From a virus (lineage: Duplodnaviria > Caudoviricetes), in IMG/VR virus record IMGVR_UViG_3300044670_000088, positions 1-33,048 of that record: 33,048 bases of DNA; one strand, written 5' to 3'. Position numbers and translations under genes: made by a program. Shown piece by piece: positions 1 through 33,048 of the stretch (the first letter of the stretch is position 1; each line of letters opens with the position of its first letter). Under the pieces are notes generated by a model. That model had not been told where the DNA came from, searched no databases, and saw nothing but the letters and a program-made list of their open reading frames with translations.

Positions 1-28
1 ATTTAACATAATACATTTTATGCGACTA
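1..28 (-). other. dif: dif-like XerC/XerD recombination site
   Basis: Minus strand reads TAGTCGCATAA-AATGTA-TTATGTTAAAT, an 11-6-11 layout. The XerD arm is identical to E. coli dif (TTATGTTAAAT) and the XerC arm shares CGCATAA with E. coli GGTGCGCATAA. Confidence 0.9.
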
Positions 29-41
29 AGCAATTGTTTGT

Positions 42-54
42 TATCAAGCACTTA
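42..54 (+). promoter_or_regulatory. IHF binding site
   Basis: TATCAAGCACTTA is an exact match to WATCAANNNNTTR. A one-mismatch inverted copy lies at 27-39 (minus strand AAACAATTGCTTA). Confidence 0.6.
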
Positions 55-100: not shown

Positions 101-182
101 TTCAAAACCAAACGCCGGGGGTGGTGTTCTCGCGCGTAGCTCGGTCTCGATCAGGATGTGATATACACACACATTCCCCCAA

Positions 183-506
183 TCATCTGCTCATCAACGA
201 TCTCTTTGTTGCACCACCTTTGCTGCTTCTATCCTTGGCAAACCCTGTTGCCTCTGGCTCTCCCTTGAACCGTGGAAACCTTTTGCCTGTGTCCTCTTCG
301 TAACGCCTAGCTATTCCTGCTGCTGTCTCTTCATCAAGCACCATGTGTTCACCGTCTTGATTGAACCACACTGACGGTACTGCCCACCATTGATTGTCTG
401 GTGATGGCGTTGTGACTAGCCGCTCTGTCATTTGCCTTCCGTCTTCCAGCTGCACTGGCTTGTGCTTAGCTGGGTCAAACGGTACTGGCCCATTCCACTC
501 TGCCAT
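183..506 (-). CDS. Hypothetical late protein (107 aa) ending in KRSLMSR
   Basis: Translationally coupled to terS (TGATG overlap); protein-like composition. Confidence 0.8.
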   Translation of the reverse strand: MAEWNGPVPFDPAKHKPVQLEDGRQMTERLVTTPSPDNQWWAVPSVWFNQDGEHMVLDEETAAGIARRYEEDTGKRFPRFKGEPEATGFAKDRSSKGGATKRSLMSR

Positions 507-967
507 CAGTGCTTAACGATCTCCTGCTGCTGCGTGCTGACTGTCACGCTGTCCTCGTCGTGTGCGCTGACAGCTACATCACCGCCTGCCCATGATATTG
601 TGATGGCCTGTTGCTGTGGTGCTTCCTCTTTCTTATCCCGGATACCCCAAGGCTGGTTTCTTCCTAGCGTCCACTTGAGCGTGTCTATCTCCAGCCTGCG
701 GCGTTGCACTTCAGCATTGGCTAACCTGTTGTCATCGAACTCTGGCAGTGGCGAGAGTGCTAGCTGATTGATATGATCTGTGTAGTATTCGGCCTGCATT
801 ACTCTGCCTTGCCGGTACATTTCCCACAATTCCTCGTCGCGCACTGCTGCCTTTGTGATTGCTCTGTAAGTTGGCATATCTGGATCTTTGACGATCTGCA
901 CGAGTGTTTCGCCTTGCGCTAATCTGTCCATGATCTTTTGCATGACTGCTTTTGTGACGCGTTTCAT
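506..967 (-). CDS. terS: Terminase small subunit (Sf6/P22-like)
   Basis: IMDRLAQGETLVQIVKDPDMPTY HTH and RRRLEIDTLKW motif. ATG at 967 with GGAAAG upstream is preferred over the TTG at 979. Confidence 0.85.
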   Translation of the reverse strand: MKRVTKAVMQKIMDRLAQGETLVQIVKDPDMPTYRAITKAAVRDEELWEMYRQGRVMQAEYYTDHINQLALSPLPEFDDNRLANAEVQRRRLEIDTLKWTLGRNQPWGIRDKKEEAPQQQAITISWAGGDVAVSAHDEDSVTVSTQQQEIVKH

Positions 968-4025: not shown

Positions 4026-4070
4026 TTGCTTTGTTTCTTCGTATCATATACATTTGACAGTATCAGTCAA
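4026..4070. promoter_or_regulatory. Overlapping divergent sigma70 promoters with a 17-bp operator palindrome
   Basis: Rightward TTGCTT(4026)-N17-TACATT(4049); leftward TTGACT(4070)-N16-TATGAT(4048); palindrome TTGAC-AGTATCA-GTCAA at 4054-4070. Confidence 0.7.
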
Positions 4071-4086
4071 TACGGGGAGATTTGAT

Positions 4087-5064
4087 ATGGGGCTGAAAGG
4101 TTCAACAGCTTTTGCTGATCGCTTTAATTATCGATGGCATAGCAACCCAAGTACCCCAGATGCTTGGACTTTTTTTGATAAGGCCGTGCAAAGGGTGCAA
4201 CGAGATGAAGCGTTTAAGATACTACGGGGCGAAACAGAAGGTGACACTTCTTGGGCCGAAAAGATCTTGGATCAAGGTGCGTACTATAAGGATGCGATGG
4301 GCTCAACGCAGTTCACTGACAATCCAAACATGGTTAGCGGAAGGGCAGTGCAGCAATATGCTGATCGGCTACTCGTCGATGAAGTATCACCTTCTGATGC
4401 ATACGCAGACGCAATCAATTTGCTGCATGGCTTTCGGGGCGGTGACTGGCGCGACACTGAGAAAGATGCGCGCATCATTGAGAACCGAGAGAGACTTTAC
4501 TACGATGCTGAAGGCAAGCGTAGCAAAGAACCAACTCATAATGAGTTCGGGCTTGTCTGCGAAAACGCAGCGGCAGGCATACGCGAGGCGATGCAAGGTG
4601 CGAACAGGATCACGGGTGAAATAGAATTGTTTGGCCCGCTGCCTGGTTGTGAGTTGCCATACTTTGGCAAGCCAGATTACGGTGATGGCCGGTGCGAGTT
4701 AAAGACGCAATGGGATCAGGCTGCAGATACAGACAGCCCGCGTGCGAACTCACTACCAAAAAAAATCAAAGCACCGCATATGATGCAGATCGCAGGCTAT
4801 TGGTATTTGTCTGGAATTGTGACGCGCATCGTCTATGCTAACAGGCTCGGATATGTAGTGCATGAGCCCACAGAGGAAGAGCTAGACCGTGCGCTCGGTG
4901 ACATTGCGTCAGCCTGCAAACGCCGGGAAAAACTTATGAAGGTTGCAGATGATGTACAAGATCTGCTGCGCCTGACCGATCCGCATTTTGCTGACAGCTT
5001 TGTCTGGCGAGATGTTCACCCAGAAGTATTAATGCAAGCCAAGAAAATGTTTGGAGTAATTTGA
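4087..5064 (+). CDS. PD-(D/E)XK exonuclease-like protein
   Basis: GKPDY..ELKT..HMMQIAGY motifs; SD GGGGAG before ATG 4087. Confidence 0.75.
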   Translation: MGLKGSTAFADRFNYRWHSNPSTPDAWTFFDKAVQRVQRDEAFKILRGETEGDTSWAEKILDQGAYYKDAMGSTQFTDNPNMVSGRAVQQYADRLLVDEVSPSDAYADAINLLHGFRGGDWRDTEKDARIIENRERLYYDAEGKRSKEPTHNEFGLVCENAAAGIREAMQGANRITGEIELFGPLPGCELPYFGKPDYGDGRCELKTQWDQAADTDSPRANSLPKKIKAPHMMQIAGYWYLSGIVTRIVYANRLGYVVHEPTEEELDRALGDIASACKRREKLMKVADDVQDLLRLTDPHFADSFVWRDVHPEVLMQAKKMFGVI

Positions 5065-5699
5065 TGGCAGATCTTTTAAACGCAATGAACGAGGTCAATG
5101 ACCTCAACCGCACGCACGGTGTAACGCAGCGTGGCGGTAAGAAATACACAGAGGTCTTTGTGCGCGTCGAAGCTTTTCGTAAAGCTTTCGGCCTAGACTT
5201 TGGCATCAACACAGAAATACTTGTGGATGATGGGCAGCGCGTAGTGGTAAAAGCTACAGTAACAAATGCACAGGGCACGATCATTGGCTCTGGCATGGCT
5301 GAAGAAGTACGCGGGCAGGGCAATGTAAACAAAACATCTGCATTGGAAAACGGGGAAACATCTGCGATAGGCCGAGCGCTTGCCAGCCTTGGCCTGCATG
5401 GCGGCAGCTACGCCTCATTGAATGAGATAGATGCAGTGCAAAGAAAGACGCAGGCAATGGCACAGCAGCCAGCACCGGCAGCACAGCCTGCAACACCTAA
5501 GTCAGATAAAGAACAAGCAATCGCTTGGTGCAAAGATCTTGTTGCGAAATACAACGCAGCAAATAGCAGGCGGGAGCTAAGCGAGATTGACCGCAACACA
5601 CCAGACGCAGCGCTGGAAGCATTGAAGAATGATTATCCAGATCTGCACCAACTGCTCATAGAGCGCTTCACTCAAAAGGAGAATAACCTTGTCAACTAA
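5064..5699 (+). CDS. Single-strand annealing protein/recombinase (Rad52/Sak-like)
   Basis: KKYTEVFVRVEAFR..VVVKATV..GSGMAEE..ALENGETSAIGRALA; lies between the exonuclease and the SSB-like gene. Confidence 0.7.
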   Translation: MADLLNAMNEVNDLNRTHGVTQRGGKKYTEVFVRVEAFRKAFGLDFGINTEILVDDGQRVVVKATVTNAQGTIIGSGMAEEVRGQGNVNKTSALENGETSAIGRALASLGLHGGSYASLNEIDAVQRKTQAMAQQPAPAAQPATPKSDKEQAIAWCKDLVAKYNAANSRRELSEIDRNTPDAALEALKNDYPDLHQLLIERFTQKENNLVN

Positions 5700-10000: not shown

Positions 10001-10167
10001 GTGTTCTTACCTATCTTGATGTAAGACAAGCATGGAGCCTTATAGGGAACCCGAATGGTGTAAGGATAATGACGCCAGATCCCAGAGGGGCATCGGTATA
10101 TACAAGCAGTGTACAAATATCCGTAGGTTGCCACGCCCACCAATATGTTGGTGAGCGAGCAGAGCAT
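9997..10167 (-). CDS. 56-aa Cys/Tyr-rich protein MLCSLTNILVGVATYGYLYTACIYRCPSG... (not in ORF track)
   Basis: TAATG coupling upstream and ATGA coupling downstream; exactly fills the gap. Confidence 0.7.
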   Translation of the reverse strand: MLCSLTNILVGVATYGYLYTACIYRCPSGIWRHYPYTIRVPYKAPCLSYIKIGKNT

Positions 10168-10358
10168 TAGCTCATCATGTTTACGCGAAGAAGAAGCGCT
10201 ATGATGAAGGCAGACGCACCAATAACAATCGCTTCTAAACGCTTTACGCGGTTAAAAAGATCTTTGAATTGAATATCCATCTCGGTTTTAATAGCCACGA
10301 TTTCCTTCTCCAATCCATCAATGCGCGTGTGAGCAGATGATACAGTGCGTTTATCCAT
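10167..10358 (-). CDS. Small coiled-coil plus C-terminal TM protein (XhlA-like architecture)
   Basis: AHTRIDGLEKEI..RVKRLE followed by a hydrophobic helix. Confidence 0.75.
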   Translation of the reverse strand: MDKRTVSSAHTRIDGLEKEIVAIKTEMDIQFKDLFNRVKRLEAIVIGASAFIIALLLRVNMMS

Positions 10359-10561
10359 TACTCTTCTTCCTTTATTTCAGCTTTCAACTTTTCCATGTAT
10401 CCAGCACGACCAACTTGCATCTGCTCTATGTTAAGCTCAAGGCCTCGGATCTTTCCATCAAGAGAATTGATCTGATTTATGCAGTGCTTTGCAACATCGC
10501 TCAGTTGATCTTCAGTGTATTCTACTTCGTCAATCGTAATGACCTTTTGTTCTTCAGCCAC
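10358..10561 (-). CDS. Small acidic coiled-coil protein downstream of the fibre
   Basis: ITIDEVEYTEDQLSD; GTG start with AGGAG. Confidence 0.8.
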   Translation of the reverse strand: MAEEQKVITIDEVEYTEDQLSDVAKHCINQINSLDGKIRGLELNIEQMQVGRAGYMEKLKAEIKEEE

Positions 10562-10584
10562 GTTGATCTCCTTTCAGGTTATGT

Positions 10585-10890
10585 CTACCACGGAACTCCG
10601 CTTGCAGACGTTGGATTAGCTATCGCATCAATCTTAGCAGCAATAGCAGCTTCAGTATCCTCTTGGGATACATGACCCCAGACCCAGCCTTGCGCTTGAG
10701 CCTCAGTTATATCGTCATACGGTGTGAAATCAGCAGCAGAGGCATCGTAGGTAAAGCCACAGGTGCCATAAGCTGATGCTGTGTTGCCATCGTCATCAAC
10801 GCCTGTGCATCTCCAATGTGCAATGTAAACGCCACCGTCAGCGATTTCATGTTCCAATGTTGGAATACTCCAAGTGTAAATAATAGCCAC
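10585..10890 (-). CDS. Tail-fibre-associated protein
   Basis: YTWSI..HWRCTG..FTPYDDITEAQAQGWV..GVPW; GTG start with GGAGG. Confidence 0.8.
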   Translation of the reverse strand: MAIIYTWSIPTLEHEIADGGVYIAHWRCTGVDDDGNTASAYGTCGFTYDASAADFTPYDDITEAQAQGWVWGHVSQEDTEAAIAAKIDAIANPTSASGVPW

Positions 10891-31684: not shown

Positions 31685-32959
31685 TCATGCTGCAAAAGGG
31701 TCATACTCCATGACCGCCTGTCTCTGCGGTGCCCTAGATCGATCCCGCGTTTCCCTAAGCCCCACAGCAAAATACCTAAAAGCATCCGCAGCGTGACTGC
31801 TCCAATCATGTACCGGCGAAGCGCGAAAACTCCGCGTCCTCTCATTATACGCCCGGTGATACTGCCGCAACGCTTCCAAACCATCCTTGCACTTCTCACG
31901 GTCAAACCACAACCGAGGTATCAACATCTGCGCAGCGTGTATCCCATCCTCAACAGGAAGCTTAGGAACAACGCGGAAATTCAAACCAAGATCCCAAGCA
32001 ATCTCCCGCCTGCTCTTACCACTACCAAGCTCACGCACCTCTATGTCATGCGGCGCATTGTGATCCCCGTATAAATACTTCTTCTCCGAAAGAACCTTGC
32101 AATAATGAGGCAAACCCTCATTCCTGTTTTCATAAAAGTCTATCACATGCACAGCACGGCCAACACTCTGCGTAAACCAAACCGCCGTGCTATCACCAAC
32201 ACCCAAATCCCACCACGTATCAACACGCACAGAAGGATCATAAGGAACATTAGCTATACGACCAGACGCCGTTATCTCCTCTAAATCCTTACCGTAAATC
32301 GCACCCGGAACATTCGCATTCCAACTGCACTCAAATTCCTGCGCATACTGATCAGCACTCATCATATTCTGTGCAGCAGACAATTCCTCATCATCCAACA
32401 ACCCAGTCTCTGAAGCCTTATATATCGCAGTCAACCAATCATCATTCGCAGCAGACTGCTCATAAAGCTCATAGAACGCGTTATGACCCTTTGGCGTACC
32501 AACAAACACACCCCAGCCCTTACGGTCACTCAGCGCTGGCCGTATGACCTCTGGGAACACATTCTCAGGCATCTGTGCAACCTCGTCCATCACACAGCCA
32601 TCCAAATAAATCCCTCGCAAACTATCCGGGTTCTCAGCACCCAGCAAAGAAATCCTGCCGCCAGTAGGCAAATCACACCGCAACTCAGTCTCGTGAAACT
32701 TCACACCGGGTATCTTCCCAGCAAACTGCTTCAAATAATCCCAAGCTACATTCTTAGCCTGACGATAAGTCGGTGCCATATACGCATATCTCGGCGAGGG
32801 CTTGCTGTTCATAATCGCATCCCTAAGAATGTGATTAATCGCCCACACCGTCTTCCCAAAACGACGATGACAAACAACAACACCCCAACGCTTCGCCTGC
32901 ATCTCATTGTGCAGCATCATCTGCAATGCACGCGGCTCATAAGGTATCTCAATCTTCAA
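31685..32959 (-). CDS. terL: Terminase large subunit
   Basis: HRRFGKT Walker A; LRGIYLDGCVMDE Walker B; GTPKG; WDLGVGDST; HAADAFRY; TTG start with GGGGAG SD. Confidence 0.96.
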   Translation of the reverse strand: MKIEIPYEPRALQMMLHNEMQAKRWGVVVCHRRFGKTVWAINHILRDAIMNSKPSPRYAYMAPTYRQAKNVAWDYLKQFAGKIPGVKFHETELRCDLPTGGRISLLGAENPDSLRGIYLDGCVMDEVAQMPENVFPEVIRPALSDRKGWGVFVGTPKGHNAFYELYEQSAANDDWLTAIYKASETGLLDDEELSAAQNMMSADQYAQEFECSWNANVPGAIYGKDLEEITASGRIANVPYDPSVRVDTWWDLGVGDSTAVWFTQSVGRAVHVIDFYENRNEGLPHYCKVLSEKKYLYGDHNAPHDIEVRELGSGKSRREIAWDLGLNFRVVPKLPVEDGIHAAQMLIPRLWFDREKCKDGLEALRQYHRAYNERTRSFRASPVHDWSSHAADAFRYFAVGLRETRDRSRAPQRQAVMEYDPFAA

Positions 32960-33048
32960 TGCTCTGTCTCCCCATCACGGAACACCATTACACCAGCACG
33001 CTCCAACATCCGCTCGTACAAGTCAATCAACAGCACCTGAGCATGTAC
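32956..33048 (-). CDS. 3' end of a gene truncated by the window edge (..VHAQVLLIDLYERMLERAGVMVFRDGETEH)
   Basis: Open 30-codon frame whose TGA overlaps the terL TTG. Confidence 0.55.
   Translation of the reverse strand, partial: VHAQVLLIDLYERMLERAGVMVFRDGETEH

Follow-up and report, generated by a model that had tools for sequence, protein, structure and literature searches.

The window, by which we mean the whole stretch of 33,048 nucleotides analysed here, is a linear IMG/VR virus contig that is 96% complete and represents an HTVC010P-like podovirus, with syntenic terL, portal, scaffold, capsid and tail tubular genes. A scan of its 46 ORFs against Pfam and PHROGs returned no DNA polymerase, no RNA polymerase and no recombinase. 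Six-frame searches of the window (E<=1) likewise detected no tyrosine recombinase (PF00589), no serine resolvase (PF00239), no FtsK-gamma domain (PF09397) and no DUF3653, which we take to be the XafT family. The preliminary description of this DNA, which had seen a phage devoid of recombinase, is thus borne out. The following genes are relevant here.

183..506, minus strand: accessory gene of 107 aa between terS and the slot described below (phrog_938, E 2e-13), missing or replaced in close relatives
506..964, minus strand: terS, terminase small subunit, Sf6-like (PF20901, E 1e-20; phrog_1482)
4054..5064, plus strand: probable PD-(D/E)XK exonuclease (tblastn to the 'putative nuclease' of HTVC028P, E 8e-7)
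5061..5699, plus strand: probable Sak/Rad52-type single-strand annealing protein (Atlas neighbours at 0.95-0.98, mostly PF27148, some PF06378 SSAP_Sak)
31685..32959, minus strand: terL, terminase large subunit, 56% identical to that of HTVC010P
32956..33048, minus strand: 3' end of a small ORF preceding terL, the start of which falls in the missing 174 bp in relatives

For the product of 4054..5064, the nearest Atlas cluster having a family carries PF12705 on 32% of its members; this 336-aa ORF resembles a nuclease, and its identification as a hidden recombinase is unsupported. The product of 5061..5699 may, as a lead only, give the phage a homologous-recombination route of its own. Comparison of TerL with solved structures gave no hint of the packaging mode.

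The first 28 bases of the window read, on the minus strand, TAGTCGCATAA-AATGTA-TTATGTTAAAT. They and their surroundings can be described as follows.

1..28, minus strand: dif-like XerC/XerD site of 11-6-11 layout, recognized by its sequence and its conservation in the terS-terL slot
1..11, minus strand: XerD-type arm, identical to the E. coli arm and the least variable part in relatives (diversity 0.006)
12..17, minus strand: 6-bp spacer AATGTA, five positions of which vary fast, the A adjoining the XerD arm being almost fixed
18..28, minus strand: XerC-type arm, the inner 7 bases of which are those of the E. coli XerC arm
42..54, plus strand: exact match to the IHF consensus, a predicted site, 13 bp from the XerC arm
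131..138, minus strand: motif A (TACGCGCG), conserved and bounding the slot on the left; present in 126 of 143 regions

Comparison with the E. coli dif arms (Table 1 of PMC2731167) agrees with the initial reading of a full 11-6-11 dif with a perfect XerD arm on the minus strand. The inner arms ATAA and TTATG stand in dif-type layout, and the spacer AATGTA differs from the TGTATA of E. coli dif. With a matrix made from 40 sites of the window's own clade, this is the window's single strong dif site (35.6 bits; the runner-up scores 7.5). It is non-coding and present in a single copy, and each of six dif-bearing long records scanned also carries one site. The exact 28-mer had no match in other viral contigs.

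The position of the site at the contig end would suit a chance match or an assembly artefact, a reading to which we attach practically no probability and which is refuted by conservation in relatives. Exact 7+11-base matches at dif spacing are expected about 1e-6 times in the window by chance, a site one base different from the window's lies inside continuous phage DNA of the related locus L189, and 184 of 200 loci spanning terS and terL have the site. Relatives with 99-100% identical TerL run unbroken through terS, an optional gene, the site, 174 bp, the small ORF and terL. The contig start had been proposed to be a phage-host or prophage boundary; this has to be abandoned, as relatives continue as phage DNA across the site. 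The gap between window positions 33048 and 1 amounts in relatives to these 174 bp, which hold the start of the small ORF and motif B (CCC(C/T)ACCC). An integrase, the presence of which in the missing sequence had been named as a possible objection to the use of host Xer, cannot sit there, because relatives show only 174 bp at this place.

Two further contigs (L108 and L204) terminate in or beside their dif site, and populations differ in the spacer and three bases past the XerD arm. Such strain variation in and just after the site provides an ordinary cause for assembly breaks. Contig ends within 750 bp showed no clear enrichment on the slot side over the other side in three sets (14 vs 6, 14 vs 16 and 12 vs 7), and no loose contig end at dif was present among those listed. 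In the assembled contigs of the probable source run (88% of the run read), about 290 bp at the slot are uncovered, with a depth of 69 vs 92 on the two sides; as assembled contigs are unable to show genome ends, we base no conclusion on this. The window contains no terminal repeats. The 125-bp 'DTR' of Skadi phages (PMC10504331, available text) was set aside as evidence on termini, because the distance from terL to the record end differs among Skadi records; the repeat could be an overlap left by assembly.

Scans with TerL and TerS yielded 200 loci spanning terS-terL, representing 144 distinct regions. A dif site of at least 13 bits lies in the terS-terL gap of 130 of these 144, which answers positively the proposal that related phages be searched for dif between the two terminase genes. 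Arranged by TerL identity, the site is found in 15/15 regions at 95% or more, 106/110 at 80-95%, 8/17 at 70-80% and 1/2 below, so that it is neither absent nor degenerate in close relatives, an outcome that had been named as contrary to the initial proposal. Flanking DNA outside the gap (1.53 Mb) contains no match of at least 18 bits, and 18 of 400 stretches reach 13. We regard it as supported that the dif site is conserved and selected, and that it tracks the lack of an integrase. Its orientation is free (89 minus, 41 plus), with 12 flips on a TerL tree of 71 tips.

The arms and the spacer evolve very differently. The 130 dif sites contain 49 spacers, the last base of which, adjoining the XerD arm, is A in 99% of 73 unique sites. 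Across 19 species-level clusters, spacer positions 1-5 diverge by 0.126 per site, compared with 0.039-0.057 for the flanks, 0.027 for terL, 0.006 for the XerD arm and 0 for the last spacer base. A fast-evolving spacer between conserved arms fits pairing of the site with itself rather than with a single fixed partner in the host. Five spacers occur in the species-level group of the window itself (AATGTA, TAGTGA, TATCTA, CGTGTA and CATGTA), corresponding to five triplets on the XerC side and three on the XerD side, only the last A being fixed.

The site is flanked by motifs A and B, which lie 96-246 bp apart. An exact IHF-consensus match is present between the two motifs in 49 of 143 regions, against 0.016 expected per 150 bp. 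In relatives the match often lies 13-14 bp from the dif site; allowing at most one mismatch, it is found exactly 13 bp from the XerC arm at 41 of 130 sites. A sigma-70 promoter scan of the slot revealed no excess. Motif B (L003:4752-4790) is kept in dif-bearing, dif-less and pelagiphage genomes and may be a late promoter or a packaging signal. Read on its reverse strand, it matches KOPS exactly and points at the slot in 36 of 144 regions, and it is an exact KOPS in the dif-less phage Greip too. The window has 3 KOPS; within 3 kb of the 130 related sites, 56 point toward the site and 29 away, and most of them are motif B. We consider motif B doubtful as a dedicated KOPS, because it is kept in phages without dif.

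Several local variants deserve mention. Between terS and motif A (183-506 in the window; L003:4042-4543), near-identical phages have a further exchange slot, which contains nothing, the 107-aa gene or other inserts. Locus L042 carries a decayed dif (4 bits; L042:4151-4178 and downstream) and about 700 extra bases, HNH-like by eye, between motif B and terL. Two loci from alphaproteobacterial genomes (L099:7999-8026 and L101:8019-8046) carry, some 2 kb upstream of terL, an almost perfect palindrome with two XerC-like arms.

The dif-less relatives offer a second view of the same slot. Among records at least 90% complete, PF00589 occurs in 0/16 dif-bearing records (12 + 3 from the relatives, and the window) and in 6/6 dif-less ones (Fisher p 1.3e-5, uncorrected for kinship). 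None of the 15 integrase-positive records has dif in the slot; a tyrosine integrase is encoded by two of the first five dif-less records, all five being fragments. The TerL tree of 71 tips requires 6 switches between the two site types; ten tips show neither site by the patterns used. In dif-less relatives the slot contains a palindrome whose 7-bp spacer varies. A tandem repeat with a core 54-58 bp beyond it was found in 32/54 and 10/14 dif-less regions and in 0/12 and 0/130 dif-bearing ones, the pattern being derived from these same sequences and the two sets overlapping in a few loci. In integrase-positive records, the repeat and core were detected in 11/15 by script and in L360 by eye, while L337, L380 and L392 (3/15) show neither site by the patterns used.

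The real attP of these temperate relatives adjoins int, 7-10 kb from the slot. It comes with either the 3' end of a tRNA (tRNA-Asp in the case of the commonest core) or a fragment of an alphaproteobacterial tmRNA (E 2e-9); such targets were seen upstream of int in L302:483-969 and in L440-L452. The slot repeats match the attP of their own phage best in a 9x9 matrix (1 of 362,880 permutations). This matrix used 9 of 14 pairs: L440 and L451 had too little upstream DNA, and L445, L446 and L448, the attP of which was not within the 650 bp taken, gave no diagonal signal. The slot core carries the arms of the tRNA T-loop att core (for example ACAGG-N7-CCCGT) with 22 other spacers. In cultured HTVC028P, the best genome-wide match to the pre-terL repeats is again the attP region, the ATTCACTA repeats and a core-like stretch upstream of terL matching it (L083:36165-36388 and 10165-10601). 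The temperate slot can be read as an attL-like half-site with an overlap that cannot match attB, because lambda-type exchange needs identity over the 7-bp overlap (PMC1807965, available text). Taken together, the comparisons show a fixed terS-terL slot occupied exclusively by either a host-type dif or a putative integrase-type half-site, each with conserved arms and a private spacer.

Both kinds of site might serve for docking only, XerCD or the integrase bending or blocking the DNA upstream of motif B together with IHF and thereby regulating late transcription or the start of packaging. Integrases can repress promoters that overlap att regions (PMC2951348, available text), and motif B is retained even in pelagiphages with neither site. 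Several temperate relatives, moreover, carry an extra, similar arm-plus-core copy just before int, possibly for autoregulation. Plain binding, however, would not select for a spacer that evolves faster than the adjacent non-coding DNA. The inverted arms are both preserved, with the 6-bp or 7-bp spacing exact, as strand exchange requires, and dif stands in either orientation at anything from 42 to 222 bp from motif B. We therefore regard docking as unlikely.

The preliminary description had favoured an attP through which the phage would integrate at host dif by means of XerCD. Integration would split terS from terL. It is not without attraction: throughout the clade dif stands in for the integrase, the window stops exactly at the XerD arm, with L108 and L204 ending in or next to the site, and the base adjoining the XerD arm is fixed, as in host sites. 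In gokushoviruses the dif spacers vary and the phage still integrates (PMC7062461, available text), so that spacer variety alone does not exclude integration. Against this, the loci from the TerL and TerS scans contain no prophage or host junction at dif, no integrated copy bounded by attL and attR at a host dif, and terS lies upstream of dif wherever enough DNA is present, L060 aside. Two pattern scans for the site returned 15 and 13 contigs, all of them previously known loci, and a GTDB scan gave 20 loci from 114 stretches with no prophage at dif. The site was present in one GTDB locus only (66% TerL), a 38-kb phage-like contig in which the order terS-dif-terL is unbroken (L087, PAOW01000004.1), filed in an archaeal MAG, probably through a binning error. 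Rare lysogens could be missed, because viral contigs make up most of the collections and each species has a single genome in GTDB. Within the window's species, with its five spacers, neither half of the spacer is constant; temperate relatives have in this slot a second integrase-type site distinct from their attP; and the contig ends have the ordinary explanation of strain variation. Integration at host dif thus looks improbable, more so than docking.

Candidate hosts of relatives bear on the same question. Of 101 Alphaproteobacteria sampled, 27 contain the commonest attP core, which was found in none of 61 Rhodobacteraceae. Of the genomes with this core, 15/19 match a dif pattern, mostly as CGCATAA-T(A/G)TATA-TTATGG(A/T)A. 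Dif-bearing phages of the sister clade have the arms of these candidate hosts, but their spacers (CATCTA, TATCCA, CATCCA and GATCCA) differ from the hosts' mostly TATATA or TGTATA. The dif-like arms of Rhodobacteraceae use the same words (227 of 301 genomes matched, among the matches listed, 150 of 350). Rhodobacteraceae were rejected as hosts, the tRNA core of several temperate relatives being present in 0/61 of them.

The temperate relatives seem to point to alphaproteobacterial hosts other than SAR11, and the 49% GC of the window phage and its dif site argue against a SAR11 host. The SAR11 host P. ubique is described as lacking dif and Xer (PMC2731167, available text). The window resembles the HTVC010P-type pelagiphages in gene order, TerL (51-56%), capsid (63-72%) and the lack of a DNA polymerase, but differs in its 49% GC and in its dif, which a scan with the dif matrix did not find in the three pelagiphages HTVC010P, HTVC028P and Greip. 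This absence, in phages whose host lacks dif and Xer, suits our preferred reading given below. No integrase is annotated in HTVC010P or Greip, which lack dif as well. A palindrome, GGTCA-N7-TGACC, stands ahead of motif B in HTVC010P (L082:470-500, upstream of terL). Lytic and tRNA-integrating subgroups are distinguished among HTVC010P-type pelagiphages in PMC8477408, in the available text of which the word 'xer' does not appear.

An unrelated group of phages provides an analogue. The window's first 30 bases match 231 cultured-phage records, which, among the matches listed (the 60 best and 60 spread over the 231), are mostly rV5-like myoviruses and some seuratviruses. All nine phages examined (Hena1, rV5, VogelGryff, PBES 02, UPEC06, Pr121LW, I29, phiTE and CarlMeissner) combine E. 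coli-type arms with non-host spacers (9/9; loci L290:289-316, L291:5613-5640 and L292-L300, from Vequintavirinae and one Seuratvirus). In Hena1 the dif lies inside an annotated direct terminal repeat of 519 bp, of which it is the sole part found by blastn in the others of the nine; in UPEC06 it lies inside a terminal repeat of 462 bp. Phage I29 has two dif copies 594 bp apart. The Vequintavirinae share with the window the dif arms and a non-host spacer ending in TA. They are, unlike it, large and unrelated myoviruses with their own DNA polymerase, and in the stretches examined their dif is not beside the terminase genes. According to the available text of PMC3606486, which does not contain the word 'xer', rV5 is lytic and its genome is circularly permuted.

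We think that the window's site probably recombines with itself, with host XerCD as the likely partner, and most likely so as to circularize the injected genome; we give this reading a probability of about 0.5. The packaged DNA would have two copies of the phage's own dif-type site in its terminal repeat or terminal redundancy, and host XerC and XerD would recombine them, closing the injected linear genome into a circle. That the slot is duplicated at the packaged ends and serves circularization is suggested because its position is fixed and because the analogue has dif in a terminal repeat. The circle would then be copied by host enzymes, because no DNA polymerase is found among the 46 ORFs. 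Thanks to its changing spacer, the site would pair neither with the dif of the host nor with co-infecting phages. The attL-like copy of temperate relatives would be served in an equivalent way by the phage integrase together with IHF; attL-by-attL recombination is known as the 'bent-L' pathway.

Several observations speak against circularization. Contig ends show no clear excess at the slot. FtsK activates XerCD at dif (PMC5357621, available text), and the window has no FtsK-gamma or DUF3653 activator and only 3 KOPS. The probable exonuclease and annealing protein of the phage itself could close redundant ends into a circle independently of Xer, HTVC010P and Greip do without either site, the rV5 genome is circularly permuted (PMC3606486, available text), and the variable spacers of gokushoviruses still permit integration (PMC7062461, available text).

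A self-recombining site might also have nothing to do with the packaged ends. In that case XerCD (in temperate relatives, the integrase) would act as at plasmid Xer sites, resolving multimers or joining sister circles into concatemers for packaging. The free orientation, the private spacer and the exclusion with the integrase site would fit this equally well, the probable recombination proteins of the phage would generate dimers, and multi-replicon bacteria hold a different spacer per replicon (PMC2731167, available text). This would leave unexplained, however, why two unrelated site types, in either orientation, occupy one slot of 100-250 bp, and why dif lies in the terminal repeat of Hena1 and UPEC06. 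Although it is the strongest of the rivals, we think it rather unlikely. The dimer-resolution half of the original proposal comes close to our preferred reading; its attP half is not supported.

The circularization of phages without cohesive ends is usually assumed to occur by homologous recombination. A site-specific XerCD route, interchangeable with a phage integrase, would change this picture for an abundant marine group. The site is a real feature and a new form of host-Xer use. It is conceivable, although we would stop short of calling it probable, that many tailed phages keep at the packaging end a swappable 'circularization slot' filled according to lifestyle: temperate phages would use their own integrase on an insulated attL-like copy and integrase-less ones a dif mimic with XerCD, the slot having switched repeatedly with lifestyle in the marine podovirus clade. 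If this is true, lytic rV5-like coliphages would share the XerCD dependence, XerCD would be an unrecognized host factor for lytic dsDNA phages, and integrases would gain a second job in the lytic cycle.

Phages known to use dif are filamentous, microviral or double-jelly-roll, and they integrate (PMC5357621, PMC7062461 and PMC12715192, available text of each). Such a route would be a warning that a dif in a phage need not mean lysogeny. In the literature, most subscription papers aside, we found no report of dif beside the terminase genes or in the terminal repeats of tailed phages, including those of Vequintavirinae. What appears to be new here is the mutual exclusion of dif and an integrase-type site in one slot of one clade.

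In phage P1, Cre and loxP cyclize the terminally redundant virion DNA. The window would be similar in having a tyrosine-recombinase site near the packaging start that recombines self by self. It differs in that the enzyme would be host XerCD, or a lambda-type integrase in temperate relatives, no Cre-like gene being present; a phage-coded recombinase acting on the site is lacking in the window and present in the dif-less temperate relatives. Duplication of the site in the terminal redundancy, as in P1, was seen among the phage analogues only in Hena1 and UPEC06. In P1, site-specific recombination serves stable inheritance (PMC5357621, available text).

The Xer sites of plasmids and secondary chromosomes (cer, psi and dif2) resemble the window's site in their XerCD arms and replicon-specific spacer (PMC5357621 and PMC2731167, available text). 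The window's spacer has 6 bp, that of cer 8 bp, and the window's site, unlike cer, belongs to a tailed phage and is tied in position to the terminase genes. Unlike at plasmid Xer sites, an IHF-like match often adjoins the phage dif. The integrative elements exploiting Xer, or IMEXs (CTX, VGJ, TLC, enterogokushoviruses and dif-type DJR phages; PMC5357621, PMC7062461 and PMC12715192, available text), are likewise integrase-less phages with one dif-like site, and the window phage shares with them the lack of a recombinase of its own. Unlike them, it is a dsDNA tailed phage of 33 kb for which no prophage at dif was found. The XerD arm is the best-kept part in the window's clade and varies in gokushoviruses and TLC; the window has neither the XafT/DUF3653 activator nor the divergent XerD arm of the TLC type. 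The slot of the temperate relatives, finally, is comparable to a lambda attL half-site, with two tandem arm-like repeats about 55 bp from the core and a 7-bp spacer. Unlike lambda attL, it is an additional site at a distance from attP and has an overlap unable to match attB; in the window its place is taken by dif.
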